64,000 bases of DNA from Nitrospinaceae bacterium (GCA_965223665.1 OZ245011.1:2528001-2592000), one strand, 5' to 3'; counted from the first letter of the stretch, positions 10,148 to 57,713 are shown. Translations and numbers: made by a program. Notes: a model not told the origin generated them from the letters alone.

Positions 10148-10193
10148 TTTTAACAGATCAAACACTCAATTTAGTTTTGAGAGAGGTATTAAA

Positions 10194-36300: not shown

Positions 36301-38854
36301 AAAAGGCACTTGGCTCCACCCCATCCTGGAAACTAATGGTGTTTGGGCTGGTAGCAGTGGGAACTCTTACTGTTACATTTTGCGAATCGGTTCCCGTATT
36401 ACCTGCCGCGTCCGTTGCGGTCCAAATTACTATAGTGGTTCCCAAAGGAAACCCACCTGCCGGTGCGTCATTGGTTATGGAAGCTACACCAATATCATCC
36501 ACTGCAGCAGCGGTTCCTAGAGACACAGAAGTTTGGTCCCCAGTAGAATCCACCACTACATCCGGTGGAGCAATGATTGATGGAGAAATACTGTCTGCAC
36601 CGGTTGGCAACGTATAAGTCACAGACAACCGCGGACGGGTGTCCGTTTGCCTGGAAAAAAACCGAATGGCGTTCCACCAGTCAGGATGCTCGCCTGGACC
36701 AGCATTCTGCACCGCCAATCCATTATTGGTAATGCTGCCATCCACCCAACCCTGAATTACACTAATTCCTGCAGCATTCAATGGAATTGTGTTCAATGCA
36801 AACTTCTGGGGTGTGATGGTTCCCATGATCGTGGAACTTACATTGGTGGTTCCGCCTAATGAATTCCAGGTCGCTCCTGTTTCTGTCCATGAAGTCAGTA
36901 TTTCATGCAGATGATAGGAAGTTTCACTACGGTTAAATAAATCAAAATACACGGTGGCCGATTGAATCGTTGCATTCGATGGAATCGATGATAAATCCCA
37001 GGACACCAACACCAGAGCATCACCTTCTATCGTATTTTCGAATCGCCCATGTGCGATCAATTCAGCTTTGGTTCCGTAATTCGTATCCGGTGCCCCTTCA
37101 AAAATATAAGTATCCCGGGTTCCATTGTATCCGGAGTGGGGGTACGTCCCATCCTGAAAGTGTGCTGAGTAAACAGGTGGATCTACAAAACTCGGAGTAA
37201 AACTGAACTGGCTCCCAGGGGCTGGAATCGCCGTATTGGATTCGTGATCCTGAACGTTGGTCACTGTAAGGTTGTACGTCGTTGTGTTACTCAATTCTGA
37301 AGTCAGTAACCTCACGGTTCGATAATCATCCAACAGTTCTGCAGCCGTAATGGTAGCTCCGTTATCTAATACATAGTTAGCAGAATTCTCGGCACTTACT
37401 TTTTCCAAAGGCTCCGAAAACTGTACTTCTAATGTCAACGGATTCGGCGCATAGACAGAAAACATCTCCGGAGGAAACGTATTCAAATCATGAGTAATCG
37501 TAAACTGGTCTTCGATTTTACCCAGGGAATCAATAAAGATCGCTTCCAGACGATTCTCATACACATCCAATACCATGGAACCTAATTTGTTTAATGGAAT
37601 ATACATTGCCGGATGACGGATCAATACCGAAGACAATTGCCCCGAACTTCCGGCCACGGCATAAACAGCGCCGTCATCCCCTACTTTCGTACCATCCGGA
37701 TTTAAGGCTTTGGTATAGGCCCCATCCGCCATATGCAGCGGTTCGGATTTACCATTCCCACTGTCTAAGGCATGAGTGCCCAGATTAAAAGTCGTCTGAT
37801 CCCCATAATGTCCATTCAGAAAATAAGACCGCTCATAAGAATGACTGTGACCCGACAACACTAAATCCACTCCATTGCTTTCCAGAATAGGAACAATGTT
37901 CTCACGCATTTCAATTAATATTTGCTCTAAATTGGAGTTATGAGAACCTCTTGAATAAGGAGGATGGTGCCAATACGCAATGATCCATTCCTTATCATTG
38001 GCCGCTAAATCACTCTGCAACCAGGTGATCATTGAGGAAGGTGCAACTCGGGGATGACCAAACGAATCCAAGACAATAAAGTGAATATTGCCGTAATCAA
38101 ACGAATAATACGCCTCAGTTCCCGAGGCCACTCCACCGGCTTCTGCCGCTCGTGGTAACTGCCAGATATCAAAATAGGTCCCGGTTTCACTTCCCGAAGT
38201 GGCACTGCCAGCATCATGATTCCCAAACGTTGGCCACACTGATACATTCCTTAAAAATTCCGGATACATCAGGAAAACGCCATCGTGGTGGTCGCGATCG
38301 TCACCATCTTCATAGGCATTGTCTCCCAGCATCAACCAGATATCCGGATCACGGTCTTTTGTATAATTCTTAAATCGTTCACCCACCACTAAGGCACGGA
38401 TGTCCCCAGTCCCGGAATCTCCTACCGCCCAAATCCGAATCGGCTTTGCTGTCCCAGGGGTTGGGGGAGTTTTAAAGCTTCCATTGAGTTTGGTTTCTGT
38501 GGAAGGTGTGGTCGATGTTCCGACTGCATAATAGTAACGGGTATCGGCCGTCAAACTGAGAGTCACTTCATATTCTCGCCAGTCCTCAGGACAATAACTA
38601 CAAGACTTGGTCACTGCTGTCGCATCGGTTACTACGGTGGTTAAACTTCCCGGAGACGTCCCAAAATGAATGCTGTCATTGAAATCCTCGGAAGCGGGAA
38701 CGCGCCACTTCACAATTACGCTATTGGGGGTAAGAGTTTGGAGGAAAGGACCCCAATCATTTATATCCGCAAAAGCTGTTTTCCCAAAAAACAAAAAACA
38801 TAGAGTTATTGCAAAAAACCATTTATGGTTTTTTGTAGTAACAAAACCGGCCAT
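30353..38854 (-). CDS. Giant secreted PAP-like metallophosphoesterase with 5 DNRLRE-like and 17 HYR domains (paralog B)
   Basis: Same PAP motifs as paralog A; GGAGG RBS before ATG 38854; includes a 12-HYR tandem stalk. Confidence 0.85.
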   Translation of the reverse strand: MAGFVTTKNHKWFFAITLCFLFFGKTAFADINDWGPFLQTLTPNSVIVKWRVPASEDFNDSIHFGTSPGSLTTVVTDATAVTKSCSYCPEDWREYEVTLSLTADTRYYYAVGTSTTPSTETKLNGSFKTPPTPGTAKPIRIWAVGDSGTGDIRALVVGERFKNYTKDRDPDIWLMLGDNAYEDGDDRDHHDGVFLMYPEFLRNVSVWPTFGNHDAGSATSGSETGTYFDIWQLPRAAEAGGVASGTEAYYSFDYGNIHFIVLDSFGHPRVAPSSMITWLQSDLAANDKEWIIAYWHHPPYSRGSHNSNLEQILIEMRENIVPILESNGVDLVLSGHSHSYERSYFLNGHYGDQTTFNLGTHALDSGNGKSEPLHMADGAYTKALNPDGTKVGDDGAVYAVAGSSGQLSSVLIRHPAMYIPLNKLGSMVLDVYENRLEAIFIDSLGKIEDQFTITHDLNTFPPEMFSVYAPNPLTLEVQFSEPLEKVSAENSANYVLDNGATITAAELLDDYRTVRLLTSELSNTTTYNLTVTNVQDHESNTAIPAPGSQFSFTPSFVDPPVYSAHFQDGTYPHSGYNGTRDTYIFEGAPDTNYGTKAELIAHGRFENTIEGDALVLVSWDLSSIPSNATIQSATVYFDLFNRSETSYHLHEILTSWTETGATWNSLGGTTNVSSTIMGTITPQKFALNTIPLNAAGISVIQGWVDGSITNNGLAVQNAGPGEHPDWWNAIRFFSRQTDTRPRLSVTYTLPTGADSISPSIIAPPDVVVDSTGDQTSVSLGTAAAVDDIGVASITNDAPAGGFPLGTTIVIWTATDAAGNTGTDSQNVTVRVPTATSPNTISFQDGVEPSAFYFGTEDSTLTETSRHKNLGDDTELWGDGVSQDPDTGLFGELTFVTKWDLSAIPPNAVVSSVDVSFNVFNDSPVAHDIVEVEAGWTEDEVSWSIISHNTTVGSTIFGSIPPLTFNENIVSLNQAGIDLVQGWIDGTIPNNGFLIQTSGSNNGMGVHSSEAATATSRPKIAISYTIPAGTDTEPPVVTAPADITTPATGPLTPVDIGTATATDNVGVTSLTNNAPPGGFPAGATIVTWTAMDAAGNIGTDTQTITVVDDVLPTITAPADITMEATAPATPVSLGTPTTSDNVGVASVTNDAPAGGFPVGLTLVTWTVTDTSGNINTDTQNVTIEDTTAPVVTAPADITVTETGPLTPVDIGTATATDAVGVTSLTNDAPEDGFPQGTTIVTWTADDAAGNIGTDTQVIAVQAAGSGGPTTVSFQDGVEPDSSYAGTQDSLLRQSSPDTPRGDETSLSADLVQPDPTNGTFGEVISVISWDISSIPIDATVDSASISLELTNVSGGNYDLFEVLTSWNEATVTWNILGGSSTNVGTTAIGTISPGIFGENVITLNADGLNLLQGWIDGSINNNGIVVKQVNNNNDGIFINSSEAATGKPKLTVTYTTPVTGDTEPPVVTPPPDVTAVSTGSLTPVNIGTATATDNIGVVSLTNDAPAGGYPLGTTIVTWTALDAAANAGTATQQVIVQVPTVEGSNTTSFQNEVEPDILYLGTQDALLRETSPDVNDNTSELWADGVAPDPVNGLFGEVVSVISWDVTSIPSNATVTAVSITLDFFNDSSGNHDFLQANSTWTEDTVTWGNFGGTGSMGTTVLGTIGPFLFNEQEFSLGVDGVNLVQGWIDGTIPNNGIVVRSAGTNNGIGFDSSEATTGRPKLTVTYDITSSGDTTPPVVTAPADVTTEATGPTTTVALGTGTANDDVDGPLVPTNDAPPAGFPVGLTVVTWSATDSSGNTGTDTQNVTVTDTTPPTVTAPADITTTNTTPALGTGTATDLVDGSITPTNDSPGTFPVGTTVVTWSATDTAGNTGTDTQNVTITEDTTPPVVTAPADVTTEATGPTTTVALGTGTANDDVDGPLVPTNDAPPAGFPVGLTVVTWSATDSSGNTGTDTQNVTVTDTTPPTVTAPADITTTDTTPNLGTGTANDLVDGSITPTNDSPGTFPVGTTVVTWSATDTAGNTGTDTQNVTITEDTTPPVVTAPADVTTEATGPTTTVALGTGTANDDVDGPLVPTNDAPPAGFPVGLTVVTWSATDSSGNTGTDTQNVTVTDTTPPTVTAPADITTTNTTPALGTGTATDLVDGSITPTNDSPGTFPVGTTVVTWSATDTAGNTGTDTQNVTITEDTTPPVVTAPADVTTEATGPTTTVALGTGTANDDVDGPLVPTNDAPPAGFPVGLTVVTWSATDSSGNTGTDTQNVTVTDTTPPTVTAPADITTTNTTPNLGTGTANDLVDGSITPTNDSPGTFPVGTTVVTWSATDTAGNTGTDTQNVTITEDTTPPVVTAPADVTTEATGPTTTVALGTGTANDDVDGSLVPTNDAPAGGFPVGLTVVTWSATDSSGNTGTDTQNVTVTDTTPPTVTAPADITTTNTTPNLGTGTANDLVDGSITPTNDAPATFPVGTTVVTWSATDTAGNTGTDTQNVTITEDTTPPVVTAPADVTTEATGPTTTVALGTGTANDDVDGSLVPTNDAPAGGFPVGLTVVTWSATDSSGNTGTDTQNVTVTDTTPPTVTAPADITTTNTTPNLGTGTANDLVDGSITPTNDAPATFPVGTTVVTWSATDTAGNTGTDTQNVTIEVVGFFISFQDGVEPDPGYSGTQDAYLEETAPTVNNGTDVELWSDGRERDPVTRTFGELFSVISWDISSVPTNAIVQSVSITIDIFNSSPGQSFIYQSQTSWTEGTVNWNTFTGGSAIGTDVLGTVPIDALGENVIDLNQDGIDLVQGWIDGSISNEGIVIRGDGTINGMIFDSSEAATGMPKLTINYTLP
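30930..33657. repeat. Tandem repeat of 456 bp x6 (each unit encodes 2 HYR domains)
   Basis: Shadow ORFs recur at 31162, 31618, 32074, 32530, 32986 and 33442, a period of 456. Confidence 0.95.
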
Positions 38855-39029
38855 TTTCCCCTCCAAATATACTTTCGCTCCTTAAAAGTATCTATAACCT
38901 TTTCAGGTAGTTAAATAGTAATGTGTGTGACCATACCTTATCAGGTTGGGTAGATATTGCAAAAATAAATTCGCCTGTTTGGCGGTTAAATTTAAAAGTT
39001 TCAATACCGTAACAAATCAGCAATATTTC
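37074..39029. repeat. About 1.96-kb direct repeat, copy 1 (5' part and upstream region of paralog B)
   Basis: Appears identical to 43150-45105 (offset 6076); shadow ORFs are identical in both copies. Confidence 0.9.
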
Positions 39030-45105: not shown

Positions 45106-45360
45106 AAATTAAGAAAAAATAGATAATTAAATAGATTTAATAATTTAGGAAAATACGGTTGTTCCCAAAAAATCCCTTGATCCAACATTCTTAACTTTAA
45201 ACGTTAAACCAGAACCACCAATTTAGCTAAGGCCAAAAGGCTGAATTTATTAGTATGATAGAAATTTAAGTTCTTAAATAAGCTCTGACTTACTTAGAAA
45301 TAACCGAGTTGTGTGGTTGCTTTACAAAAAGCTTGAAACTGGAATCTGTATGATAGATCT

Positions 45361-45510
45361 ATGAAACAAAATTTCCAAGAACGCTTCAGCCTGGATGATA
45401 CTTCCGGCATTCTCTTTTATGATAACGAAAAGGAGAGGTTAGCCCTGGAAGAGGAAAATTATATAAATCCCGATTTCAAAGATTTTAGGACGTCACAGAT
45501 GTTTTTATGA
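45361..45510 (+). CDS. Possible 49-aa acidic small protein (MKQNFQERFSLDD...)
   Basis: Open frame ATG 45361 to TGA 45510; TATGAT lies 6 nt upstream, which would suit a leaderless mRNA. Confidence 0.3.
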   Translation: MKQNFQERFSLDDTSGILFYDNEKERLALEEENYINPDFKDFRTSQMFL

Positions 45511-45675
45511 AAAACTTATTTTTAAAGGCCATTAAAGAATTGGAGACCTTATTGTAGGATTAAAACAAATCTCCCTTTATACAAAGGGTAAAAAAAGGAG
45601 AATATTTTCTAGATAATTTTCTAATCTGAGATTAAGGAAATAAACTTTTTATATAGAATTGTTTTATTTTCTAAA

Positions 45676-45720
45676 GGCACGCCTGGCAGGACTCGAACCT
45701 GCGACCTACGGATTAGAAGT
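45676..45720 (-). mobile_element. att site: 3' fragment of tRNA-Arg(TCT)
   Basis: Reverse complement ACTTCTAATCCGTAGGTCGCAGGTTCGAGTCCTGCCAGGCGTGCC covers anticodon loop to acceptor stem. The 5' half of the tRNA is absent and an integrase is adjacent. Confidence 0.9.
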
Positions 45721-45892
45721 ACATCGAATACTTTAATTTCCTTTCCTTCCTTGATCTTCCCATAAGTTCCCAATATAATAATTTCAGCTATTTATAAACC
45801 TTATCGAGAAAATTGTTTTTCTTCGAAAGTAGAGATGGGAAGTATTGGGAATGCAAAAATGTGATAAAAATGTGATAAAAGTAGACCCGCGG

Positions 45893-47098
45893 ATGAATAA
45901 CAAATCGGTCCACTGGGTTGGGACTAAATATCCCGGGGTGCAATTCAGGGAACATGAGACTCGCAAATTTAAAAGGCGATTAGACCGCTCTATCATCATT
46001 CGCTATCGAAAACACGGAAAATTAGTGAATGAAACTGTTGGTTGGGAAACTGATGGTGCCACTTTAGAAGAAGCGGCGAAACTACGTGGACAAATCATTC
46101 AAAATATTCGCTTAGGTTCTGGATTTCAATCTTTAAAAGAAAAGCGAGAGTTGGAGCAAACCAAACGAAAGAAGAAAATCGAAGAAAAGAAATCTAAAGA
46201 AATAGAAAATATATCTTTCGAACAATTAGCTCAAAATTATCTAGACTGGGCCAGGTCCCATAAAAAAAGTTGGCGTGATGACTACTCCCGCTACCAATAT
46301 CATTTGGGTCCATCTTTAGGGAAACTAGTTGCGAAAAAGATTAAAGTTTTAGAATTAGAACGATTCAAGAAAAAATTGAATCACAAAGGTCTTGCTCCAG
46401 GAACCATTCGTCATTGTTTAGTCTTAATCCGGCAAATCTACAACCGTGCCTCGCGGATAGGATTATTTGATGGTCCAAATCCGATTAAGGAAACCTCTCA
46501 AATTGATCGCCATTTTTTAAAAACACCTGATAACCGACGCTTACGGTTTTTGAGTCGAGATGAAGCAGATTCCTTACTTACGGAACTGAAGCAAAGAAGT
46601 CCGCAAGTGTATAACATGACCTTACTTTCGTTGCATACGGGTATGCGAGCCGGTGAAATATTTGCGCTTACTTGGCAAGATATAGACTTGGCCCATAAAA
46701 TTATCACTATTCGAAATCCTAAGAACAATGAAAGTCGGCAAGCGTATATGACACCGCAGGTTTTTGAAATATTGGGGCAATTAAAAAATGCTAACTCTAA
46801 AAGACAACATCTGATCTTTAGTAATCGCAAGGGAAACCAAATTAAAGAGATTTCGAATGTGTTTTCAAAGATTGTGCAACAGCTTGGGTTAAATGACGGG
46901 GTAACAGATTTAAGAAGCAAACTGGTATTTCATTCGATCCGGCACACGTTTGCAAGCTGGTTGGCTCTTCAAGGAGAAACCTTATTAACGATAAAGGAAT
47001 TAATGGGTCATAAAGATATAAACATGACAATGCGTTATGCTCATTTAATTCCAGATCAAAAAAGAAATGCAGTAATTAAACTGGGGATAGGAGAATAG
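45893..47098 (+). CDS. int: Tyrosine integrase
   Basis: Catalytic residues in TGMRAGE, NPKN, FHSIRHTFAS, LMGH, TMRYAH. Start uncertain (45845, 45851 or 45893). Confidence 0.95.
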   Translation: MNNKSVHWVGTKYPGVQFREHETRKFKRRLDRSIIIRYRKHGKLVNETVGWETDGATLEEAAKLRGQIIQNIRLGSGFQSLKEKRELEQTKRKKKIEEKKSKEIENISFEQLAQNYLDWARSHKKSWRDDYSRYQYHLGPSLGKLVAKKIKVLELERFKKKLNHKGLAPGTIRHCLVLIRQIYNRASRIGLFDGPNPIKETSQIDRHFLKTPDNRRLRFLSRDEADSLLTELKQRSPQVYNMTLLSLHTGMRAGEIFALTWQDIDLAHKIITIRNPKNNESRQAYMTPQVFEILGQLKNANSKRQHLIFSNRKGNQIKEISNVFSKIVQQLGLNDGVTDLRSKLVFHSIRHTFASWLALQGETLLTIKELMGHKDINMTMRYAHLIPDQKRNAVIKLGIGE

Positions 47099-47105
47099 GA
47101 ATAAA

Positions 47106-48071
47106 ATGAATGAATTAATAAAGTATTTAGAAATTCATCCTTCCTTTAACCAAAATACAAAACCTGAGCAATTAGAGAAAATTTTGAGAGGTCCATGGTG
47201 TCCATTACTTGGAAGAATTCCAAAACTCGGGCTGCCATTAAATTCACCCGAAAACAGGTGTTTGTTTATAATAATTGAATCAAGAAAATTATGGGGGATC
47301 GACTTTGAGCCAACTTTTAATAGATGTGGAAAAAATCCCGACTGGCCGAAAAAGAATAGTATAAATTCTTACCCCGAAAAGGAATTTGCGGAGATTGTTT
47401 TAAAGACGGCGCGTGAAATTGATCGGTTGTCACCGTCGATAATGTTGAATTCTGAAATTCGAGATCCCAAGAAAGATTATCTTTTAATGGAAGATGGATC
47501 TTACGCTATTTCTAAGGGTATTGATCAGGTTCCAATTCATGAAATACGAATTGTTGCGAATTCTTTGTTACGTCCAAGCTATCAAAAATTTAAAGATCAA
47601 CAACTTTTGGCAAGTCTAGCTATTTACAGTGCTTGGCATGTTTTTGAATTTTTGATAAGAAAATTTTCAGATGTAGATATAACTGAAATACTTCCCAGGT
47701 TATACCGGGCGGAAGGTTTATTAAGAACAGCAAAAATAATAGAGGGTAATGAAAAAGCCGAAGATTCAATAAAGTTAGGATTCCAAAAAGGACAAAAAGA
47801 AGGAATCTCAGTCCAAAATAGATTAAATGCCAAGAAACCCAGAAGGCCTGATCCGTTAAATGAATTTATTTTAAATATCCTTAAAAAAAATAAAGGCAAT
47901 CTAAATTCAAATCAAATGTGGCAGATTATTAAAGCAAATGTAGGCGAAGACTGTATAGTGACTGTGACCGATTCGGTTATTGAGTATGAAGATAAAAATT
48001 CCAGGATAAACTCGTTAAAGAAAAAATCTTTCCCTCCTCGATTCCATAGAATAAAAAAATTGCTCTTTTAA
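47106..48071 (+). CDS. Hypothetical island protein
   Basis: 321-aa ORF 7 nt after int with an AGGA RBS; basic C-terminus. Confidence 0.65.
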   Translation: MNELIKYLEIHPSFNQNTKPEQLEKILRGPWCPLLGRIPKLGLPLNSPENRCLFIIIESRKLWGIDFEPTFNRCGKNPDWPKKNSINSYPEKEFAEIVLKTAREIDRLSPSIMLNSEIRDPKKDYLLMEDGSYAISKGIDQVPIHEIRIVANSLLRPSYQKFKDQQLLASLAIYSAWHVFEFLIRKFSDVDITEILPRLYRAEGLLRTAKIIEGNEKAEDSIKLGFQKGQKEGISVQNRLNAKKPRRPDPLNEFILNILKKNKGNLNSNQMWQIIKANVGEDCIVTVTDSVIEYEDKNSRINSLKKKSFPPRFHRIKKLLF

Positions 48072-48170
48072 AATTTCAAAAGCGCGCTTTTGAAATTTTA
48101 CCAATGTAAATTAACTATCAATTATTAACCCAATGGAAAAGTTGGGAACTTTACATTGGAAAGGAGAATT

Positions 48171-48383
48171 ATGAATAAAGAAATCAACCCTAAAATGATA
48201 GCCCGCACAAATGTTCACGAGTTATTCCCTGGTCTTTCCTCTAAATACTTAGCCAATTTGAAATCACTGGGGAAAGGTCCTCAACCTTATAAAGTGGGAC
48301 GAAGAATTTTCTACCTTGTATCCGACATTGAAGGGTTTATGAAGAAAAATCCTCTTCCTTTAAAAGCTGGAAACCCTATTTAA
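48171..48383 (+). CDS. AlpA/excisionase-like HTH DNA-binding protein
   Basis: GLSSKYLANLKSLGKGPQPYKVGRRIFYLVSDI matches the MerR-like HTH pattern of Xis/AlpA proteins; AGGAG RBS. Confidence 0.8.
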   Translation: MNKEINPKMIARTNVHELFPGLSSKYLANLKSLGKGPQPYKVGRRIFYLVSDIEGFMKKNPLPLKAGNPI

Positions 48384-48501
48384 ATTCTCAAATTGTTAAT
48401 TTAAGTCAATGCAGCAAATATTGAAAAATTTATTTTTTTACATAATTTTATACTGCCGTGAGAATAATACTTTCCAAAGGATTTAAAATCAAAGGTGAAT
48501 T

Positions 48502-49596
48502 ATGAAATGGTTTAAACATATGACCGATGCTCAAGATGATGAATTTATTGCCGAATTGGAATCTCAGTATCGTGGATTTGATGGTCCTGGTCGATGGTGG
48601 AGATTGTTAGAAATCATTGGCAAGCATGTGGACCAAACAGGGAAGTGTGAAGCCATCTATTCTGTTTCGCAATGGTGTCAAAAGTTAAAAGTGACGCGTT
48701 CAGGTCTGCTTAAGTTTACAAACTTGGTGGTAATTTGGGGCAAAGTGGAAACCAAAACTATTGATACAAGAATGCTAATAAGATGCCCTAAGTTACTAGA
48801 AATAAGAGATGAATATACAAGGAAATCCGGACAATCTCCTGATAAACTCCAACCAGAAACAGAAGCAAAAACAAATTTAAGAAATAATAAAAAAGAAAAG
48901 AGTGTAGAAAAGCCTTCACTCTCAATGACTGTGAAACAAAAATTTACAAATCTAAAGCAACTTGGTCCTCCCGCATCTTTAAATGGCAATGTATCTGATA
49001 TTGATAAATTCTTAAACCAAGCTCAACGTGTTCATACTAAGATCCGGGGACCAATGATCCTAAATCAAAAAAGGGACGTTAAGGTAGCGCATCGGTTAGT
49101 AAAGGAAATTCCAGACTTCAAACGGCTCAACCTACTCTGGACAATTTTTCTTAATCTAAATAATTCCTGGCTTAACACCAACCCTGGTAGGCGCTGTTTG
49201 AGCGTGTTCCCAAAGTTTTTAAATGATTGCCAAGCAGAAGTTAATCGTTTGTTTAAAGCCCGGGATTACCGAAAACAAAATAGCAGACGGGGAAACAAAA
49301 CAACGCCAAAATATGAACCCTTAACTAGAGATGATCAAATCACTTGGCAAACAGTTTTGAAAGAAGTTGAGTCTTCTAACTTGCCAGAGAATTACCAAAC
49401 CTGGTTTACCCCAATTTATCCCTTAGGCCGCAAGGGGAAAAAATTAATTATTGCAGTTCCTAACGAATATTTTTCACGTTGTTTATCTGAAAACTATTTA
49501 AAGAGGATTATGAAAATATTGAATGAACTGGATAGTACAATTGAAAATGTTGAATTTATGGCAAAACCTGAAGAAAACATGGGTGCATTCAATTAA
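48502..49596 (+). CDS. Phage-type replication initiator with a C-terminal DnaA domain I-like region
   Basis: N-terminal MKWFKH.TDA.DD...G.G.WW.LLE.I and PKLLEIRDEY (replisome-organiser-like); C-terminal WQTVL...YQTWFTP...LIIAVPNEY....SENY. Confidence 0.75.
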   Translation: MKWFKHMTDAQDDEFIAELESQYRGFDGPGRWWRLLEIIGKHVDQTGKCEAIYSVSQWCQKLKVTRSGLLKFTNLVVIWGKVETKTIDTRMLIRCPKLLEIRDEYTRKSGQSPDKLQPETEAKTNLRNNKKEKSVEKPSLSMTVKQKFTNLKQLGPPASLNGNVSDIDKFLNQAQRVHTKIRGPMILNQKRDVKVAHRLVKEIPDFKRLNLLWTIFLNLNNSWLNTNPGRRCLSVFPKFLNDCQAEVNRLFKARDYRKQNSRRGNKTTPKYEPLTRDDQITWQTVLKEVESSNLPENYQTWFTPIYPLGRKGKKLIIAVPNEYFSRCLSENYLKRIMKILNELDSTIENVEFMAKPEENMGAFN

Positions 49597-49632
49597 TGGT
49601 CAATTGATTTTTAGTTGATATCATTTTTATAG

Positions 49633-49730
49633 CTTACGGGTCCTTCCTAGGGGTCGTGCCTAACGGGTGCGCGGCAGCACTGGATATCGCTAGAGAACTG
49701 TCCAAAAAATGTTTTGACGTTTTGACGCTT
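49633..49730 (+). other. Lambda-like cos site (cosQ, cosN, possible cosB repeats)
   Basis: TTACGGGTCCT...AACG-GGTGCGCGGCAG-CACTGG-ATA-TCGCTA, then TTTTGACG x2; a GC-rich patch directly upstream of terS. Confidence 0.7.
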
Positions 49731-49806
49731 TAGAAAGTCTTTTAAACTGTTTTTGGATTCTCAAAACCTTTGTAACTCATTTCAAATAAAAGACTGAAAT
49801 ATTTTT

Positions 49807-50346
49807 ATGGAATTAGTTTCTCTTTATGAATATGAAAAAAGAACGGGAATCAAGCGTCAAAAAACTCACTACAATGTAAAAATTGGACGCCTCAAAACTT
49901 ATAAGGGAAAAATAAATGTAGATGAGGCCAATGAACTATTTGGCTTAATAGATAAGATTGAATCAAATCAAGAATCTTTTCATTCAAATAAATCCAATAA
50001 GAATGAAGAGGAATTCAATTACTATAAGGAACGAGCTATACATGAAAAGTTAAAAATACAACTCACACAATTAGAATTGGGAAGAAAGTCCGGTCAACTT
50101 GTGGAAATTGAATTAGTAGATCAGGAATTGAGTAAGTTAGTAACCGCAGTTCGCCAGAGGTTGTTGGCTTTACCTACCAAACTTACACCTCAACTAGTTA
50201 ATCAAAAATCTCCGGGGTTCATTAAAGAATTAATTACTGAAGCAATTTACGAAGCATTAAGTGAATTTCAACATTATAACCCGGAAAGCGGAAAAATTCT
50301 CTCCGAAAAACTCACATGCTCTCAAGGAGAAAGTGATAATTATTGA
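49807..50346 (+). CDS. terS: Terminase small subunit, lambda Nu1/Rpp-like
   Basis: N-terminal HTH; YYKERAIHEKLK.QL.QLE...SGQLV...V.......VRQRLLALP.KL.P coiled-coil pattern typical of Nu1-like TerS. Confidence 0.8.
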   Translation: MELVSLYEYEKRTGIKRQKTHYNVKIGRLKTYKGKINVDEANELFGLIDKIESNQESFHSNKSNKNEEEFNYYKERAIHEKLKIQLTQLELGRKSGQLVEIELVDQELSKLVTAVRQRLLALPTKLTPQLVNQKSPGFIKELITEAIYEALSEFQHYNPESGKILSEKLTCSQGESDNY

Positions 50347-50582
50347 CTCACTATCTTTTAACTTATATTATTTCTTTAAGAATTAAAGACAAAACTAATT
50401 TTTCAGGTTTCTCGAGAAGGGTTGAGGGTAAATTGTTCAAATCCTAAAAAAAGAAAATTCGATGTTATGCAATTTACATCTTCCTCAGCAAATTATTGAT
50501 ATTTTGAATTATTTTTTAAATTGGATAAAAAATTAATTTTTTTATTTAAATAAATTTAACTCCAATAGGTTCGTAGTTTTTT

Positions 50583-52277
50583 ATGAAAGCTGGTATTACT
50601 TTCCTAGGTATAATTTTAATAATAATTCCTCTTACTTTTTCTGATATTTTTGCAGATGGGGAGCGCGGTCTCAGAGTAATTTTGACTGACAAACCCAAAA
50701 ATAAAGTGTTCTATAAGGAAAGTCATGCATTAATAATCGGTGCAACCAATTATACGCAAGGTTGGCCTAGTTTTCCTAACATCGAAAACGAAATTAACAA
50801 GATAAAAGAAATTCTTTCAAAAATTGGATTTGATGTTGAAGTATTAATGGATCCCACAAAAAGCCAAATGGTTTCGTATATATCAGATTTTGCAGACCAC
50901 TTCGGTCAAGAGATTGATTCTCGCATATTTCTTTATTTTATTGGTCACGGATATTCTCACAAAAATTTCTTTTCTCAGAAAACCGGATTCTTTGTACCGG
51001 TTGATGCACCGAAACCGAATAAAGATTTAGACGGATTTATAAAAAAAGCCTTTTCTTTAAATGAACTAGAGTCTATTACCAGTGGAATTAAAGCAAAACA
51101 TATTTTGTATCTATTTAATAGTTCCTTTACTAATGCCAATATGTCTTCCACTCCTTTTTCACAAAATGAAATAACTTTGGAAACCAACCAAGCTTCCAGG
51201 CAAATAATAATTGCTGATACTAATAGTTTATTGGTTGGGAAAAAACATGGGTTGGGGGAAATGTTTGTTAATGCTCTAAAAGGAATGGGAGACTTCAACA
51301 AAGATGGAAAAATAACCGGAAGTGAATTAGCTAAATACTTTCGTGATTCAATAAAAGAGTATTCAAATGAGAACTGGGATATACAGTTTGGAAACTTCCA
51401 AAGTTTGGAGAATGCAAAAGGGGATTTTGTTTTTTCAAAAATCTCCTCAGAGTTATCAGAAGATAAATCTATTCACTCTTATGAAAATTCAGAAAAAGAT
51501 GAAAACACGGACGATTTTAAAACCGAGACCTCTATTGATGAAAAGAAGCGTATTGCTGAGGAGGAGAGAAGGATAAAAGAGATAAAGGAAAAGCTGAAAT
51601 TATCAAGTTTGGAACCCCAAAAAAAGATTCCTTTTGTAACCCAATCTACTCCCCCTGAAGGAATGGTATTTGTTCTAGGTTCCGAATACCTAGCCGGTTC
51701 TGAGAAAACAGGAAGTGACTCTGTACCTTTACGAAAAGTATTTATTCAGAGTTTCTACATTGATAAAACAGAGGTAACCCAAGAGAAATATAAAAAAATC
51801 ATGGGAAGAAATCCCTCAAGGTTTAAAGGAGAAAATCTTCCTGTGGAAAGAGTTAGTTGGTCAAAAGCCCGAAAGTATTGCCAAAAAATAGGTAAACGAC
51901 TTCCTACAGAGGCAGAATGGGAATATGCTGCGAGGGGAGGAGCTGGAAATAATTCACTCGGAGATTATTGGTTCAATGGAAATACTCAACATAGTCAACC
52001 AGTTGGGAAGAAGGAACCCAATTCAATTGGATTATACGATATGCTTGGGAATGTGTGGGAATGGACCCAAGACTGGTATGACAAAAATTACTATGAAACC
52101 AGATTGGATAATAACCCTCTTGGCCCTAAAAAAGGAACTAAAAAAGTTTTACGTGGTGGAGCATGGAATTCATCCTTGGATATGATTCATCCCTCTTATC
52201 GAAGTTACTACGATCCCAGATACAAGAGTGCGACTTTTGGTTTTCGATGTGCGAAAAGCTTAAAAAATAACCAGTGA
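50583..52277 (+). CDS. Secreted caspase-like (peptidase C14 fold, catalytic Cys absent) plus FGE/SUMF1-domain protein
   Basis: SHALIIG..NY, FIGHG, but LFNSSF in place of DxC. C-terminal FYIDKTEVT, PVERVSW, RLPTEAEWEYAARG, DMLGNVWEW, FGFRC. Confidence 0.85.
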   Translation: MKAGITFLGIILIIIPLTFSDIFADGERGLRVILTDKPKNKVFYKESHALIIGATNYTQGWPSFPNIENEINKIKEILSKIGFDVEVLMDPTKSQMVSYISDFADHFGQEIDSRIFLYFIGHGYSHKNFFSQKTGFFVPVDAPKPNKDLDGFIKKAFSLNELESITSGIKAKHILYLFNSSFTNANMSSTPFSQNEITLETNQASRQIIIADTNSLLVGKKHGLGEMFVNALKGMGDFNKDGKITGSELAKYFRDSIKEYSNENWDIQFGNFQSLENAKGDFVFSKISSELSEDKSIHSYENSEKDENTDDFKTETSIDEKKRIAEEERRIKEIKEKLKLSSLEPQKKIPFVTQSTPPEGMVFVLGSEYLAGSEKTGSDSVPLRKVFIQSFYIDKTEVTQEKYKKIMGRNPSRFKGENLPVERVSWSKARKYCQKIGKRLPTEAEWEYAARGGAGNNSLGDYWFNGNTQHSQPVGKKEPNSIGLYDMLGNVWEWTQDWYDKNYYETRLDNNPLGPKKGTKKVLRGGAWNSSLDMIHPSYRSYYDPRYKSATFGFRCAKSLKNNQ

Positions 52278-52280
52278 TTT

Positions 52281-55200
52281 CTATTTAACCGCAATCACAA
52301 GGTTCCTCATTCCTGTGGGTATTACTGCGAAAGGATGCTGCGTACTGTCCAGTTCTGAATTTGGAATGGATTTCAATAAAATTCCTCGACTTTGCATAGC
52401 AGATAATACTTCAATATTTCGCTTAGGAACTTCTTTGTCTACATAATTTCTTAATGAAGTAAAAAATAATTTTCCATCTTTAAATCGAGCCTTACCTTTT
52501 ATCCCATCTATGATTGCCCGGGTGAAAACGCCGCCCTTTTCCGTTTCTAATCCAAGTTCCTGACGAGATGTTCCTGTATAAATAATAGAATTCACATCAT
52601 GAATATCTTTAGCTAATTTCTGAAGGTCTTTCGAGTTTTCACTAATCACTTCCCCAGCTTCGCAAGTATCAATAATTACCATGCGTCTGCCAAGGGTTTG
52701 ATCTAAGATTTTATGCAATTTTACCCAATCAAAGCTAGTCCCCGAAGTAGACACTTTTAACTGACTATTGGATTTTTTGATTTCAGAATCTGCTGTCAAA
52801 AAATGATAATTTCCCTTTTCGTCAGTTATCCCGTGACCCGCAAAAAAATAGATCGTAGTATCATTTGGTCCAATATTTTGTATCTGGTTCAATAAAAAGG
52901 TATCAATGTCTGAGGCTTTTATTAATTTCCCATCTTGATCAGTCAAAATATTCACAACAACATTTTTAAAAAGTTTTTTTCCTTTAATTTTAAAAAGTTG
53001 AGCCATATTGAAAGCATCCAGAGGAGGGGAATACAATTGTTGCTTCTCAGGTAAATTGGGATATTGACCTATCCCAATAGCATTAACATGCAAGGTACCT
53101 TCATTGTTTTCGTTTTTATCTTTTTTGTTATTTTTTACCCATCTTTGATCACCATTTTCTGCCCACAAATTTTCAACCAGAACCTTTATGTGGTTATTAC
53201 TTCTTGGAAGAAAAGTTTGAAAATGTAAAGTATCCCCAGGATTGACTCCAGAAAGATTTCTTTGCTCTTGGGGAAGGATTTGGAAACCATTTACATAAAT
53301 GGTTATCCGTTCGGGTACCGTAATCTTATTTTTCCCCAGTTTGATGTTTATATCTGTTTTCCCTGATTTGTCGGTCTGGATGGATGCAATTTTTACATTT
53401 ACCGGAGCTCGTTTGATTAACTCATCAACCGAAATTTTTTCCAGGCCGGCCTTTTTAATTGCCCGCGTTGAGGAACTTAAAGCAAGAGTATCTCTAATAA
53501 TATCAGGACGATAAAGAAATCGGCGAAATTGGGAAGCAGTGTAATAATCGGCTGGCTTATCATATCCTCTATTTACCCGCCAACCCACATAACGATCTCC
53601 TTTGGGAGAAGCATCATAAAACCCCTCAGGTGTCCAAGCAACCCACTCATCATCAAATCCATGAAAAATACTGAGAAGCAGGCTACCTGAAGATATATCC
53701 CAAATCTTTATTGTTTGATCCGCGGAGCCTGAAAATAGCCAGCGGTTATCAGGCGAAACCGATAAAGCCCAAACATCAGACGTATGACCAATAAAGTCAT
53801 TCACTTTTTTGCCATTTTCAATGTTGTAAGAAGTTAAAACACCGTGAGCACCCCCACTAATAATTAATTTCCCGTTGTGAGTTATGGTAACACTTCGGTG
53901 GTCAGAACCCGTAAACTGGTCTTTCTTTATCCTTTTATGAAAGACTCCCTTTTTATAAATGTTAAGAGTAGGATGAATATTTTTATTAGGTGTATCTATT
54001 GACCAGTTTTCTATTTTCTTAAAAGCCTGAAAATAATTTTTATCGTCTTGTATTAAAGAACCGACACCAAGATTAAAATCACCAGAGGGTTCCTGCAAAA
54101 TAAAACTTTTTAAGAGAGGAACATTGAACTTAAGGCAACTTTTTCCAGGACAAATTCTTTTTTTTCTCCAAGCAAGTCTCTTTCCCTCTTTTGAAATACC
54201 AATACCAAAAATTCCTTTTCCTTTTCCAACCAATTTTTTTATAACTTCTCCAGTAGATATGTCCCATAAATAAAATTCATGGTTTACTCCTCCACCTGTG
54301 AGAGCGATTTTTCCATTTGGAGAAATAGCTGTCGCTAATGTAATATTGTCATGTTTGCTAAAAAAAGATAGACGCTTCCCAGTTGGAATTTCAAAAACAT
54401 TGTTTATTGAGGTATCACCAGCAGCTCCAGTTAAAACTTTTTTCCCATCCGGAGAAATGGAAATATTTGCTACATCGGAACCCTGCACTCCTAAGATTTT
54501 TAAATATTTTCCAGTTAGGCCGTTCCATATTCGAATACTATTGTCCCGGCTTCCCGAAAGTATGTACTCCCCATTCGGAGTAAAAGCAACTGTATCAACA
54601 AAATCTATATGTCCTCTTAAGTTGGAAATTAGGTTGCCAGATGAAACATCCCATAGTTTTAACGTATTATCATGACTCCCTGTTACAACCATTGAGTCAT
54701 CCGGTGAAAAAGCGACTGCCGCAACTTTTCCTTTATGACCTTTCAATATATGTTTTGTTTTTCCAGTTTTTAGATTCCAAATTCTAGCAATATTATCAAA
54801 GCCTCCTGAGATCAAAAATTTACCACTATTTGAAAAAGCTAAGTCTAGAATAACGTTTGTATGCCCCTTTAATAATTTGATTATTTCACCAGTATGGAAA
54901 TCTATAATTCGAATATTTCCACATTGGCCGGGGCATTCATTGTGAAACCACCCTCCCAAAGCTAACAGATTATTATTGGGAGAAAGAGCCGCAGCGTATA
55001 TCATTCCTTCTGTTGCATTTCCAATTTGTCCCCTGAAAACTTTTGTGGTAATTCCTCTTTCAATATCTATCACACGGGCAGTTTTATCGTCAGAGATTGT
55101 AACCAAACTTTTACCATCTTTAGTAAAAAATGCATCTCTAATAATGGATGTATGACCTCCTGAATTAATTTCAAGAATAGGCTTTTCAAATGAATTTTTA

Positions 55201-55397
55201 GTATTACTAACCTTATTGAATGAAATATTAGTTCTATAGAATAATGGGGAGGTTAAGGATACGTTTTGAGGGGCAGCGTTTAACTTACTAGTGAAATGAG
55301 AAAAAAAAATAAAACAAATAGAAGTAATTATACTTAATATCAAATGCAATTTAGAAAGAGACCTGACAGGAAGGCCTATTTTGCATGTTTTTGACAT
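52281..55397 (-). CDS. WD40-repeat plus caspase (peptidase C14) protein, probably exported
   Basis: Many GH...WD repeats, EWVAWTPEGFYDAS linker, intact FFAGHG and IIDTCEAG dyad, N-terminal hydrophobic signal. Confidence 0.9.
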   Translation of the reverse strand: MSKTCKIGLPVRSLSKLHLILSIITSICFIFFSHFTSKLNAAPQNVSLTSPLFYRTNISFNKVSNTKNSFEKPILEINSGGHTSIIRDAFFTKDGKSLVTISDDKTARVIDIERGITTKVFRGQIGNATEGMIYAAALSPNNNLLALGGWFHNECPGQCGNIRIIDFHTGEIIKLLKGHTNVILDLAFSNSGKFLISGGFDNIARIWNLKTGKTKHILKGHKGKVAAVAFSPDDSMVVTGSHDNTLKLWDVSSGNLISNLRGHIDFVDTVAFTPNGEYILSGSRDNSIRIWNGLTGKYLKILGVQGSDVANISISPDGKKVLTGAAGDTSINNVFEIPTGKRLSFFSKHDNITLATAISPNGKIALTGGGVNHEFYLWDISTGEVIKKLVGKGKGIFGIGISKEGKRLAWRKKRICPGKSCLKFNVPLLKSFILQEPSGDFNLGVGSLIQDDKNYFQAFKKIENWSIDTPNKNIHPTLNIYKKGVFHKRIKKDQFTGSDHRSVTITHNGKLIISGGAHGVLTSYNIENGKKVNDFIGHTSDVWALSVSPDNRWLFSGSADQTIKIWDISSGSLLLSIFHGFDDEWVAWTPEGFYDASPKGDRYVGWRVNRGYDKPADYYTASQFRRFLYRPDIIRDTLALSSSTRAIKKAGLEKISVDELIKRAPVNVKIASIQTDKSGKTDINIKLGKNKITVPERITIYVNGFQILPQEQRNLSGVNPGDTLHFQTFLPRSNNHIKVLVENLWAENGDQRWVKNNKKDKNENNEGTLHVNAIGIGQYPNLPEKQQLYSPPLDAFNMAQLFKIKGKKLFKNVVVNILTDQDGKLIKASDIDTFLLNQIQNIGPNDTTIYFFAGHGITDEKGNYHFLTADSEIKKSNSQLKVSTSGTSFDWVKLHKILDQTLGRRMVIIDTCEAGEVISENSKDLQKLAKDIHDVNSIIYTGTSRQELGLETEKGGVFTRAIIDGIKGKARFKDGKLFFTSLRNYVDKEVPKRNIEVLSAMQSRGILLKSIPNSELDSTQHPFAVIPTGMRNLVIAVK

Positions 55398-55486
55398 TTT
55401 TAGATCTTGTATTGACTAAAAAAATATTAATTTTTTTTTAAAAAGAAATACTTCGTATTCTAAATAATTATACAATGAAATTAAAT

Positions 55487-57670
55487 TTATTGATCACCTT
55501 GACAGGCTTGGTCTCCTTCAATACAGCCTCCGGCATCTAACTCCTCTGTTTCTTGTTCAAGTAGGACTATCATATCTGCCGGGTCAGTTTTCTCAGGTTG
55601 TCTTTCTTCACTTTTAGTTTTAGTAATTTGGCGAGTAGATTGAACCGCCTGTTCAGCGGGTTCATTAGTTGTCTGGCTGTCCACTCGGGCTTGGCATGCT
55701 GGTCCGCTGCAATTTCTACCTCCCCCTCCGGGATCCCGTTTATATCCTCTTGGTTGTCCTAAAAGCACAAGCTGACCGCCCTCTATCGAACGGTCTGGAC
55801 CCCTTGTATCCAAGGTAATATTGTCTAAAAAGGAAAGATCCCGAAATTTCCAATCTAACACTTGCCCTTCGGTAACGGAATTTTCATCTTCATCTACCAC
55901 AGTATCTAAATTTGATATTAGAATCCCAATATTCCCTCCTCTGGTTGTAATTCTATTGTTTGTTTCTTCAAATATAATTTCATTTGTTTCAAAAAGTACA
56001 GAGGGGGTTGGGTATTTCTGGTCCCCAGGCGTAATTCCTCCGTCAATACCGTCTATTAAAAATTTTTCACCATCTTTACGTAAGGTTTGTTTAAGATCCA
56101 AGATATTATCTGAAAGCCTTTCTAAAATTATTGCTTCATCTGCAATTAAATGAATGAATGTATCTTTTCCTATTCTTTCCAAGGCTTCCTCCGAAACAAC
56201 CTCTGTTCCTAGTTCCGCATTATCTCTACTGTCTGGAACCGGATCTGTTTGAAAACCACTAAGATCATTTTCGATGGATCCTCCATCAAATTCAGTTCTA
56301 CTATCTGAAAATATCGAGATTTCACCAATAGGTTTTTCCAAGAGTGGTCTTCCAAATTCCTCATCAGTGATTCTCAATATTCTTGGATCTAACAATAGAG
56401 CTCCAGCTGAGCCATTTGTAGAACCTGCATCTACAAATCCAGCAAAAGTGAGGTTTTCTTTTCCTGATACTTCTACCAATCCACCGTCGCCCGAAACTGA
56501 ACCACCTCGTGAATCAATATTTCCAAAATAACGTGTCGTTCCATCCGCCCAAAGAATGACCTTGCCACCGTCTCCGTTTTCCAAAGCAGATGCATCAATT
56601 ATTGTATTGGGCCCTACATAAGTTTGAGTAGCATTCGGTACCTCTCCCTTACCCTGGAAATCTCCTCCGACTAATGCAGTTCCTCCTCCAGATACTCCCG
56701 AAACATTTATAAATGCATATTGAAATAACCCTACCTTATCTCCCAACACATGAACCGTACCACCCATATCCCCTGATTCATTGCCAGATGCATCCAATTC
56801 GCCGGTTACAGCAGTAATTCCATTCTCTCCACCCATCAGCCAGATTTCCCCATTTTTCTCCTGGAGAGTATTTGCCCGGATTCGACCTGAATGATTCACC
56901 GTATTACGAATTACGGAACCTGCATCCAACGCTGAAAGTATTACTCTTCCACCATCTGCTTCAATTATTCCGGTATTTAATACTCTATTTTCAAGAATGT
57001 TACCTTGATCATCAAGAACATCCCCTTCCACTGCTTCAGATATTGCGAAGTTAATCAAACCATCACCCGCAAAATCAAGAGTAACCTCAGTACCTGAAGC
57101 CAAGGCCACAGACCCAAGGTTTGCCGTTATGGTCCCTTTGTTGTATACCGCCGGAGCAAGTAATCCTATTGTGGTTCCCTCAATATGCCCTTCATTAATA
57201 ATTGCAGACAAGGGATTATTTGGATCTTGAGAAAACAAATAATTTTGATTCAAAAAATCCTGGTCTGAAATATTCAATGTAGTTGCTACTAAGCCTCCGA
57301 CATTAATACGGGCATCTTGACCAAAAATAATTCCTGAGCGGTTCGTAAGAAAAACTTTTCCATTCGAGGATAAACTTCCCAAAATAGCACTGGGATTAGC
57401 CCCTACCACTCGATTGAGCGCAACAGCATTTGAATTGGGTTGAGAAAAATGAACAGACTCAGCTTTTCCAATACTGAAGGAATTCCAATTGGTTATCAGT
57501 TGTTGGGAGGATTGGTTAATCACCATACTCTTCGGATCAGGTTGGTGAATATTTCCTTGACCAGATGTGATTTGACCTCCTTGGGGAAGTGCAAAGGAAG
57601 AAAGAGGATTAGCAAAATAAAGGATAATTAGAAAGCTGAGAAAACTTTTCTTGAAAAATATTTTATTCAT
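55487..57670 (-). CDS. TpsA / filamentous-haemagglutinin N-terminal (TPS) domain exoprotein
   Basis: Signal peptide then ALPQGGQITSG, NWNSFSIG, LNRV.G..PS.I.G.L.SNG.VFL.N, and GG.VEVSG...LLLDP beta-helix repeats. Confidence 0.9.
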   Translation of the reverse strand: MNKIFFKKSFLSFLIILYFANPLSSFALPQGGQITSGQGNIHQPDPKSMVINQSSQQLITNWNSFSIGKAESVHFSQPNSNAVALNRVVGANPSAILGSLSSNGKVFLTNRSGIIFGQDARINVGGLVATTLNISDQDFLNQNYLFSQDPNNPLSAIINEGHIEGTTIGLLAPAVYNKGTITANLGSVALASGTEVTLDFAGDGLINFAISEAVEGDVLDDQGNILENRVLNTGIIEADGGRVILSALDAGSVIRNTVNHSGRIRANTLQEKNGEIWLMGGENGITAVTGELDASGNESGDMGGTVHVLGDKVGLFQYAFINVSGVSGGGTALVGGDFQGKGEVPNATQTYVGPNTIIDASALENGDGGKVILWADGTTRYFGNIDSRGGSVSGDGGLVEVSGKENLTFAGFVDAGSTNGSAGALLLDPRILRITDEEFGRPLLEKPIGEISIFSDSRTEFDGGSIENDLSGFQTDPVPDSRDNAELGTEVVSEEALERIGKDTFIHLIADEAIILERLSDNILDLKQTLRKDGEKFLIDGIDGGITPGDQKYPTPSVLFETNEIIFEETNNRITTRGGNIGILISNLDTVVDEDENSVTEGQVLDWKFRDLSFLDNITLDTRGPDRSIEGGQLVLLGQPRGYKRDPGGGGRNCSGPACQARVDSQTTNEPAEQAVQSTRQITKTKSEERQPEKTDPADMIVLLEQETEELDAGGCIEGDQACQGDQ

Positions 57671-57713
57671 GACTCCCCCAAGTATAAAAATATCAAAAAA
57701 ATATCCTTTGAAA

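Follow-up and report, generated by a model that had tools for sequence, protein, structure and literature searches.

A Nitrospinaceae island with a lambda-like cos site and a small terminase homologue, a candidate phage satellite

Phage satellites that carry an integrase, a regulator, a replication gene and a small terminase (TerS) gene are already known, and so are cos-type phage-inducible chromosomal islands (PICIs) with cosQ and cosN sequences like those of their helper phages. In the Escherichia coli cos PICI EcCICFT073, cosQ/cosN is conserved with the helper and cosB is divergent (PMC6739421; Fillol-Salom et al. 2018/2019). Here we describe an island of 38,700 bp in Nitrospinaceae bacterium (GCA_965223665.1), the head of which lies at 45676-50346 of a 64,000-nucleotide stretch of one contig (OZ245011.1:2528001-2592000; "the window" means this whole stretch, and positions given without a contig or locus name are counted from its first letter). 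A tRNA-Arg(TCT) fragment, a tyrosine integrase gene (int), a gene for a small helix-turn-helix (HTH) protein, a replication initiator gene (rep), a cos site and terS are all present there on the plus strand, within 4.7 kb (4.5 kb from int to terS). An initial annotation, made from the window alone, had read them as a compact satellite core followed by non-phage cargo. Cargo does follow directly, but it lies inside an att-bounded element of 38.7 kb.

As described in these sources, cos PICIs of the EcCICFT073 type resemble the island in being flanked by att sites, with int at one end, regulator and replication genes, and then helper-like cosQ/cosN with a cosB of their own. They also have a TerS-type winged-HTH protein, accessory genes after the packaging gene and no structural genes. 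Unlike them, the island has a full-length TerS (phrog_57, 174 of 179 residues), whereas theirs is an Rpp protein that pairs with the helper TerS; its Rep is no primase-replicase, its length is 38.7 kb compared with a PICI median of 9.5 kb, and its host belongs to the Nitrospinota. The suggestion that its TerS acts as an Rpp-type redirector was abandoned, the protein being a full-length TerS homologue and not a partial mimic.

A census of PICIs (PMC10085698) gives a median of 9.5 kb, with 17 of 1435 reaching 20-28 kb, sizes that run from int to the last core gene and are not directly comparable with the att-to-att 38.7 kb of the island. In that census, a capsid-morphogenesis gene is frequent in proteobacterial PICIs and missing from some bona fide ones; the island has none. 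It does have the integrase at one end, att repeats at a specific site and a small terminase homologue (phrog_57) in the place of a packaging-redirection gene, and it carries no other phage structural or lysis genes. An initiator of another kind stands where PICIs have a primase-replicase. Nor do the att sites enclose the genes expected of an intact prophage, those for a large terminase (TerL), portal, protease/capsid, tail and lysis.

The pac-type Staphylococcus aureus pathogenicity islands (SaPIs) with their own TerS (TerS-SP) likewise encode a TerS homologue to steer the helper TerL (PMC6739421, PMC5052747). According to these sources they package by headful (pac), use small capsids and block the phage TerS with Ppi, whereas the island has cos and no capsid-remodelling gene. 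Since its TerS is a full-length homologue rather than an Rpp-type partial mimic, the island's mechanism would resemble the SaPI strategy of an "own TerS," in a cos system. The island is also like virion-encapsidated integrative mobile elements (VEIMEs; PMC9618062), PICMIs (phage-inducible minimalist islands of the chromosome; PMC10803314) and tycheposons (10.1101/2020.12.28.424599), all of them marine integrative elements with cargo that are carried, or thought to be carried, in phage particles. VEIMEs, however, are described as recovered as concatemers of small monomers, whereas unit-length cos packaging is proposed for the helper-sized island. PICMIs differ in having, as reported, reduced gene content; they too are without capsid-remodelling genes.

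We found no paper combining "Nitrospin*" with "phage satellite," and Nitrospinota go unmentioned in the main texts of the satellite census (PMC10085698) and the VEIME study (PMC9618062), supplementary tables apart. That the host is a member of the Nitrospinota, as first surmised, was borne out: the genomes with the same cos motif are Nitrospinaceae, of the same order. New here are the phylum, the combination of cos with a complete TerS homologue, the helper-sized and cargo-dominated format, and the presence of candidate helpers in the same genome.

Extent of the island and its core genes

The left att site (attL, 45676-45720) is a 45-nt tRNA-Arg(TCT) 3' fragment that runs from anticodon loop to acceptor end and is read on the minus strand. 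The window has a single copy of it, and 100 shuffles gave no match. Because the fragment lies on the minus strand, the intact gene was expected to the right. ARAGORN, run on the whole genome, placed an intact tRNA-Arg(tct) at C1 c[2612330-2612406], and attL is exactly the 3' 45 nt of this gene, with identity stopping there on both sides. The tRNA fragment was thus correctly annotated, and the intact tRNA with the same core lies 38.7 kb to its right; an intact copy close to the core was thereby ruled out. The second 45-bp copy starts 38,700 bp to the right of the first, at window-equivalent 84331-84375 (window numbering continued past its end). The att-bounded island spans 38,700 bp (C1:2573676-2612375), and a sensitive scan of it revealed no internal copy of the tRNA-Arg att core above shuffled controls. 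Tycheposons are also said to target tRNA genes.

A genome of the same genus (G001) has an empty site. Its left flank is 82% identical up to window position ~45,100, its right flank, with the tRNA, is 87% identical, just ~2.2 kb separates the two, and the whole 38.7 kb is missing. Since the flanks nearly adjoin in G001, we concluded that the entire stretch between the 45-bp repeats is an insertion. The metagenome data used here are contigs of four low-depth runs from one study; no RNA run was among the datasets listed for the region. One contig of 17.4 kb runs unbroken from rep through cos and terS into ~14 kb of cargo, so that junction is no artefact of the given assembly. Unitigs break within the 45-bp repeat, and no single contig bridged attL. 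A commoner strain reached a summed depth of ~20, compared with 3-5 for the island. In three of the runs, contigs of the commoner strain part from the reference at window position 45105, which is also where G001 homology ends, so the locus varies between strains. The 570 bp that separate this point from attL (45106-45675) belong only to the genotype that has the island.

Two observations on tRNA fragments are recorded here. At window-equivalent ~84184-84216 (L002/L018), ~115 bp inside the right end of the island, lies a 33-nt fragment that resembles another tRNA; it is like the anticodon-to-T-arm part, with a loop that reads like Lys-CTT (score 17; shuffle maximum, 14), and may be the scar of an earlier integration. 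Lone 40-45-nt copies of the tRNA-Arg 3' half, of the same span as the att core, are clustered in another genome (G003:C1 near 1.06, 1.53 and 3.42 Mb; L026, L027 and L028), 1-5 kb apart with many small open reading frames (ORFs) between them. They were dropped as possible relatives of the island, since there are no core-gene relatives nearby.

The integrase gene (45845-47098, plus strand; 417 aa) is full length and was correctly named: the protein matches Pfam Phage_integrase (3.9e-33) and phrog_1 (5.7e-65), and its translation shows the R...HxxR...Y catalytic motifs. It is followed by orf321 (47106-48071, plus strand; function unassigned), for which Pfam and PHROG gave no family and IMG/VR gave no relative; its nearest Atlas cluster, uncharacterised viral, is a lead only. 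A perfect 32-bp palindrome (16+16, no loop; 48069-48100) between orf321 and the HTH gene is a candidate operator or terminator. The HTH protein (48156-48383, plus strand; 75 aa) matched phrog_10458 (7e-5) and phrog_66 (1.1e-3), the latter labelled "excisionase and transcriptional regulator," and had no Pfam match at E≤0.1. An AlpA/Xis-like HTH had been predicted; the HTH is present, but with matches as weak as these the AlpA label is no more than plausible. Rep (48502-49596, plus strand; 364 aa) has a DnaA_N domain at its C terminus (7.4e-10) and no primase or helicase domain, in agreement with the non-primase initiator first proposed. Its N-terminal third is common to phage proteins, some with PF14297, and relatives match that third only. 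No iterons were found within the island rep, and promoter and terminator scans stayed at chance level.

The remaining ~34 kb of the island was surveyed with Pfam, PHROG and PADLOC on 29 non-overlapping ORFs, which make up 90% of it. Terminase, portal, capsid and protease families were absent from these 29 ORFs, and the core had no capsid PHROG or Pfam match either. The original claim that terL, portal and capsid genes are lacking thus holds within the true att boundaries. A "tail protein" PHROG match (5.5e-9) was rejected as a tail gene because it falls in the FGE-sulfatase domain of a caspase-FGE protein.

The resident phages, the cos site and the small terminase

A tblastn search of the genome with the core proteins returned two paralogous rep...terS modules. 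A host search for a prophage with a Nu1/gpA-type terminase had been suggested at the outset, and it led to two lambda-like phages, each of which has a homologous rep, cos and terS. Prophage A (G000:C1:2236392-2279240; L003, L004, L007) is 42,849 bp long and is bounded by perfect 45-bp repeats of a tRNA-Glu(ttc) 3' end (C1:2236392-2236436 and 2279196-2279240). It has an uninterrupted gpA-type TerL gene (phrog_15, 1.4e-247), a gpB-type portal gene (phrog_21), a gene for a fusion of protease and major capsid protein (MCP), connector and tail genes and an integrase-like gene at ~2242514-2243314. It is the best helper candidate. The second phage genome, C2, is an entire 36,972-bp contig (G000:C2; L005, L006). 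A stop codon divides its TerL into two ORFs (L005 3658-4689 and 4730-5587), and its tail region has 80-89% DNA identity to that of prophage A, whereas head and terminase genes differ. We rejected C2 as a closed circle, since the contig ends do not overlap.

Rep of the island is 35-40% identical to Rep of the two phages. When all ORFs of at least 50 aa from prophage A and C2 were compared with the island, with spurious ORFs over the cos block set aside, only Rep (35-40%) and TerS (34-37%) had counterparts there. No late-gene pseudogene fragments were found in the island by tblastn with every ORF of both phages.

Directly after rep lies a block of ~55 bp, the cos core (49636-49690, plus strand), which is conserved upstream of terS in six elements: the island, prophage A, C2 and, from two other genomes (G054 and G055), a phage plus two elements that have no TerL. 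The tally is thus three phages and three TerL-less elements, to which is added a complete IMG/VR phage (UViG_3300022220_000009) with the block between a phrog_27 gene and terS-terL-portal. GGGTCCT (49638-49644, plus strand), a cosQ-like heptamer, is kept in all six; we take it to be the lambda cosQ heptamer (48473-48479), which agrees with its position in L009. The cosN-like sequence of the island is ACGGGTGCGCGGCAGC (49663-49678, plus strand). In five of the six elements, ACGGGTnCGCrGCAGC follows GGGTCCT after 18 nt, in register with the nick region of lambda, and the distance from cosQ to the nick is 2 nt shorter than lambda's. By analogy with lambda, the cohesive end would comprise ~49666-49677 (12 nt).

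Downstream of the cos core, the cosB-like repeat GTTTTGAC stands twice in tandem (49711-49726, plus strand). These repeats vary by lineage: two copies of GTTTTGAC in the island, three of GTGGGCA in prophage A, two of GTTGAC in C2 and two of GTGAACA in the G054/G055 elements. Those of the island resemble the pair in C2 and differ from the three in prophage A; they are candidate binding sites for the island's own TerS. In contrast, the cos cores of the island and prophage A agree at 39 of 43 bases (91%), although their proteins are only 34-40% identical.

To compare these sites with that of lambda, the lambda cos junction was rebuilt from the ends of NC_001416 and alignments were scored against 300 shuffles. 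The island cos scored 42 against the lambda cosQ-cosN junction (shuffle mean, 21; maximum, 36), exceeding 300 of 300 shuffles. Prophage A scored 44 (shuffle maximum, 42), and C2 scored 35 (shuffle maximum, 40), which alone is not above chance. The block matched no Rfam family. Conserved among six elements and above all shuffles, the site justifies the term lambda-like cos used at first: a cosQ/cosN-like sequence stands just upstream of terS and is conserved among related phages. The order of a cosQ-like heptamer, a GC-rich cosN-like core, short repeats, terS and, in the phages, terL is that of the lambda cos/Nu1/gpA region, and the resident phages have a TerL and a portal of the lambda types. 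Exact matches to a 41-nt cos motif were also seen in two Microbulbifer genomes (L037, L038). No homologues of Nitrospinota phage proteins lay around them within the 8-kb loci; the matches may be due to chance or may point to a distantly related line of phages that shares this core.

The TerS homologue (49807-50346, plus strand; 179 aa) matches phrog_57, "terminase small subunit," at 5e-21 over residues 1-174. Failure to match any TerS profile had been named as an observation that would count against the initial reading, and it did not occur. The protein had been called Nu1-like. In support of this, hhalign aligned the TerS family with lambda Nu1 at a probability of 83% (E 8.8e-6; 114 collinear columns); against it, Pfam Phage_Nu1 had no match at E≤0.1 (DUF1441 reached 0.02, below its cut-off), and identity to Nu1 is ~15%. 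An AlphaFold model (mean predicted local distance difference test [pLDDT] score, 76.5) folds residues 1-45 into an N-terminal winged HTH (pLDDT >90), with a disordered linker and three long helices after it, and the family alignment shows a conserved C-terminal motif, IxEALxEFxxY...GK. In Foldseek, only the N-terminal domain was matched, by winged HTHs of the Xis/MerR type (Pukovnik Xis, probability 0.93; BldC, 0.80), with no Nu1 chain among the matches listed. The winged HTH is also the fold class given for the TerS DNA-binding domain in the Rpp paper (PMC6739421). The whole-chain fold search had no PDB match at E≤0.001, a PDB sequence search gave chance-level matches only, and there was a weak Cox-like PHROG match (7.5e-3).

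In prophage A, C2, a phage of G054 (G054:C19) and the IMG/VR phage, terS lies between cos and a gpA-type terL. In the island, cargo follows terS instead. The island rep abuts cos-terS; prophage A, C2 and the G054 phage have further genes between rep and cos-terS, including a phrog_27 gene that adjoins cos. Of the TerL-less TerS proteins, the three with a full-length alignment have 172-179 aa and no long basic C-terminal tail, compared with mostly 189-207 aa and such a tail in phage TerS of the same family (179 aa in G034). A word-indexed search of 5.8 billion proteins with the island TerS returned only itself and no close relative. Pattern scans with a three-sequence TerS alignment found nothing in genome or metagenome contig collections and one IMG/VR phage. 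In the TerS tree, the island protein is a singleton whose placement is without resolved support.

We surveyed 120 genomes of the phylum for TerL-less cos-terS, leaving weak partial matches out and two contig-edge loci unjudged. PHROG 57 matched 16 of the 120 genomes and PHROG 15 (TerL) 12. TerL lies directly downstream at eight TerS loci and is missing at no fewer than four: the island, G055:C22, G054:C16 and G057:C284. The TerS-like ORF of the last has neither TerL nor a cos motif nearby and was counted uncertain, as was a weak match to the N terminus only in G004.

The G055 element (C22; L030 1599-15939) is an island of 14.3 kb in tRNA-Lys(ctt), flanked on both sides by a 73-nt repeat (93% identity) that overlaps the tRNA gene. 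Its genes run in the order P4-type integrase, regulator, Rep, capsid homologue, 82-aa ORF, cos and TerS, which matches the canonical PICI gene order as given in PMC10085698. Rep there combines HTH_36 with DnaA_N, and four 19-nt repeats lie inside its gene. The capsid homologue is an HK97-type protein with the capsid domain only (Phage_capsid, 3.5e-43) and shares 49% identity with the capsid portion of prophage A's protease-MCP fusion. After TerS comes defence cargo: genes for a NACHT/STAND NTPase of 1,649 aa and a SieA-like protein, with more small ORFs. No gpA-type TerL was found anywhere in the G055 assembly (92% complete). Among described satellites, SaPIbov5 (~14 kb, with cos and with Ccm, a homologue of HK97-fold capsid protein; PMC5052747) is the best match for this element, which has its capsid homologue upstream of cos-terS. 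The G055 element is about a third as long as the related ~39- to 43-kb phage genomes. To our knowledge, SaPIbov5 carries the helper cos and no TerS of its own. The Nitrospinaceae island, in contrast to SaPIbov5, is without a capsid homologue and has the size of a helper genome.

The G054 locus (C16; L031 about 9690-10370) consists of the cos block and a TerL-less terS that is 85% identical to that of G055. Genes for tRNA-Glu and tRNA-Gln are 1.4 kb away, and just upstream the contig comes to its end. Between them, the orphan terS genes of G054 and G055 have a dN/dS (ratio of nonsynonymous to synonymous substitution rates) of 0.23 over 172 codons, which indicates purifying selection, and share only 133 nt upstream, including cos; their other flanks are unrelated. 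On contig C19 (L034), G054 carries in addition a full phage whose TerS is related, and the orphan TerS of G054 and G055 group with that of this resident phage in the TerS tree (support, 91/94). The cos-terS pair thus appears, from sequence comparison, to be a cassette that was taken from local phages more than once.

A packaging model and its alternatives

We favor a model in which the island is a helper-dependent satellite-type element that is packaged from cos to cos, as a monomer, in full-size helper capsids; we regard it as evenly poised between right and wrong. Int, perhaps with the small HTH protein, would excise the island by recombination of its 45-bp att cores. Concatemers would be made from the circle by Rep, an initiator of phage type whose helicase-contact domain is DnaA_N-like. 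The Nu1-family TerS that the island itself encodes would then bind the island-specific cosB-like repeats and recruit a gpA-type TerL from the helper, which would cut the cosQ/cosN core that the two share. Prophage A is the obvious candidate for this role. At ~38.66 kb, the excised island would have 0.90 of the length of the 42.8-kb prophage A, and one cos-to-cos unit would fill a normal helper capsid, with ~34 kb of defence, secretion and caspase/WD40 cargo travelling along. Lambda packages roughly 78-105% of its genome length, a range in which the ~38.66-kb unit would fit a normal capsid. A unit length near that of the helper genome would also explain the lack of a gene for capsid-size redirection, unlike the situation in the 14.3-kb sister element.

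A further proposal goes beyond this model, and we put it forward tentatively, with distinctly less than even confidence. The island may be a natural cosmid-like, full-capsid satellite that has kept nothing but int, a regulator, rep, cos and a TerS of its own, with its length held at ~0.9 of a helper genome, that carries ~34 kb (88%) of cargo between Nitrospinota cells; together with its sister in G055, it would represent two size strategies built on one cos-terS cassette. If the model is true, phage satellites extend to the Nitrospinota, the main marine nitrite oxidisers, and their designs include one, absent from the satellite types compared here, with cos, a complete TerS and no capsid remodelling, since island and helper have the same length. 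Each particle would move defence and secretion genes by the tens of kilobases, which would give a route to large islands otherwise without a known mechanism of transfer. The case is unusually testable because the genome itself holds the candidate helper, an att-flanked prophage of 42.85 kb whose cos core is 91% identical.

Several observations weigh against the satellite model. All three phage-like functions of the core are homologous to resident phage genes and stand in a prophage-like relative order. TerS ends about where terL would start and has no long basic tail; a deletion could have removed that tail, and TerL binding might suffer from its absence. In the TerS tree, the TerL-less proteins fail to group as a single clade, and TerL could thus have been lost independently in each case. 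The island is a singleton: no close relative of its TerS or of orf321 turned up in the collections searched, so that conservation of this exact core, and selection on it, can only be supposed. The GC content of the cargo is a mosaic (30-36%, compared with 42-44% in a restriction cluster), and the 38.7 kb may for this reason have accreted after mobility was lost. No excision joints or ends were found in the low-depth metagenome contigs, and the size ratio of 0.90 could be a coincidence. Much of this would be expected if the island were a decayed prophage in tRNA-Arg(TCT) that had lost its late region (terL through the tail and lysis genes) and the genes from rep to cos and had gained unrelated DNA, so that the core is a relic which Int could at most excise. 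Homologues of resident phage genes kept in prophage order, a TerS shorter than most phage TerS that ends near the start of a lost terL, the mosaic cargo and the lack of relatives of the same architecture all fit such a history, and prophage remnants are common. We nevertheless think it rather improbable, although it is the main rival of the satellite model. Not one late-gene pseudogene fragment is left, and at least two precise deletions (rep to cos, and terL onwards) would have had to leave intact ORFs, short intergenic gaps and a cos site still whole. The att cores are both perfect copies, and int retains its full length. A remnant normally shrinks, whereas here 34 kb of foreign DNA has been added at a packageable length; and TerL-less cos-terS recurs in the phylum, in one case in canonical PICI order and with terS under purifying selection. 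The initial proposal of a satellite that hijacks a lambda-like cos helper accordingly keeps the gene identities, the cos site and the resident phages on its side, but the element is not compact, its AlpA assignment is weak, relatives are lacking, and decay of a prophage has been only weakened as an explanation.

The size of the island raises another alternative, namely that the locus is composite: a small element (int to terS, with perhaps a few more kb) would have entered beside one or more older islands of the same tRNA, the internal att having been erased, and the mobile unit would be far below 38.7 kb and, if packaged, would go as a multimer or into small capsids. The mosaic GC of the cargo, the defence cluster as a possibly separate module and the 33-nt fragment like another tRNA near the right end, which hints at past integrations, are in keeping with this, as are the 9.5-kb median of known PICIs and the small PICMIs, described as having no capsid-remodelling genes. 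However, no internal tRNA-Arg core stood above shuffled controls, G001 is without the whole 38.7 kb and not a part of it, and the metagenome contig is unbroken from rep to ~14 kb into the cargo. We consider a composite locus improbable, more so than a decayed prophage. Still lower, as a quite improbable case, we rank a domesticated TerS-like winged-HTH protein that serves as a regulator, an excisionase or an anti-phage packaging decoy in an island that is itself not packaged. It would account for the likeness of the N-terminal domain to Xis/MerR-type winged HTHs, the weak Cox-like match, the missing basic tail and the wealth of defence cargo, and satellite packaging proteins are reported to block helpers (PMC6739421). 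But the PHROG match to TerS is full length and extends beyond the HTH, and the gene stays directly downstream of an intact cos core, for which a pure decoy would have no need.

Cargo and neighbouring sequences

The first 13.7 kb of the ~34 kb of cargo lie in the window (50347-64000), and the rest continues to window-equivalent 84330. In the window, the cargo begins with genes for a caspase-FGE protein (50583-52277) and a WD40-caspase protein (52281-55397). These are followed by a two-partner-secretion (TPS) pair, made up of a TPS exoprotein (55487-57670) and a ShlB-type transporter (57714-59477), and by a DUF4384 protein (59774-60817), one of two in the cargo, which also has several unassigned ORFs. 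A pentapeptide protein is encoded beyond the window (L001). There too lies the defence cluster of ~10 kb (L001 7644-18184; GC, 42-44%), with genes for a Dcm methylase, Vsr, DUF6339, two unassigned ORFs, DUF4420, a Z1 helicase (PADLOC MzaC, 8e-80; Helicase_II, 4e-44) and a methyl-directed endonuclease of the AspBHI/Mrr type (6e-103). A methylase beside a methyl-dependent nuclease is an unusual pairing.

Outside the island, a 2,837-aa ORF on the minus strand (30353-38866) contains a 456-bp unit in six tandem copies (30930-33658; 95% matches). Beside it lie further giant ORFs (1,734 aa and 1,928 aa) that have repeated modules in common. This repeat region has a high GC content (50-59%) and is also conserved in G001.

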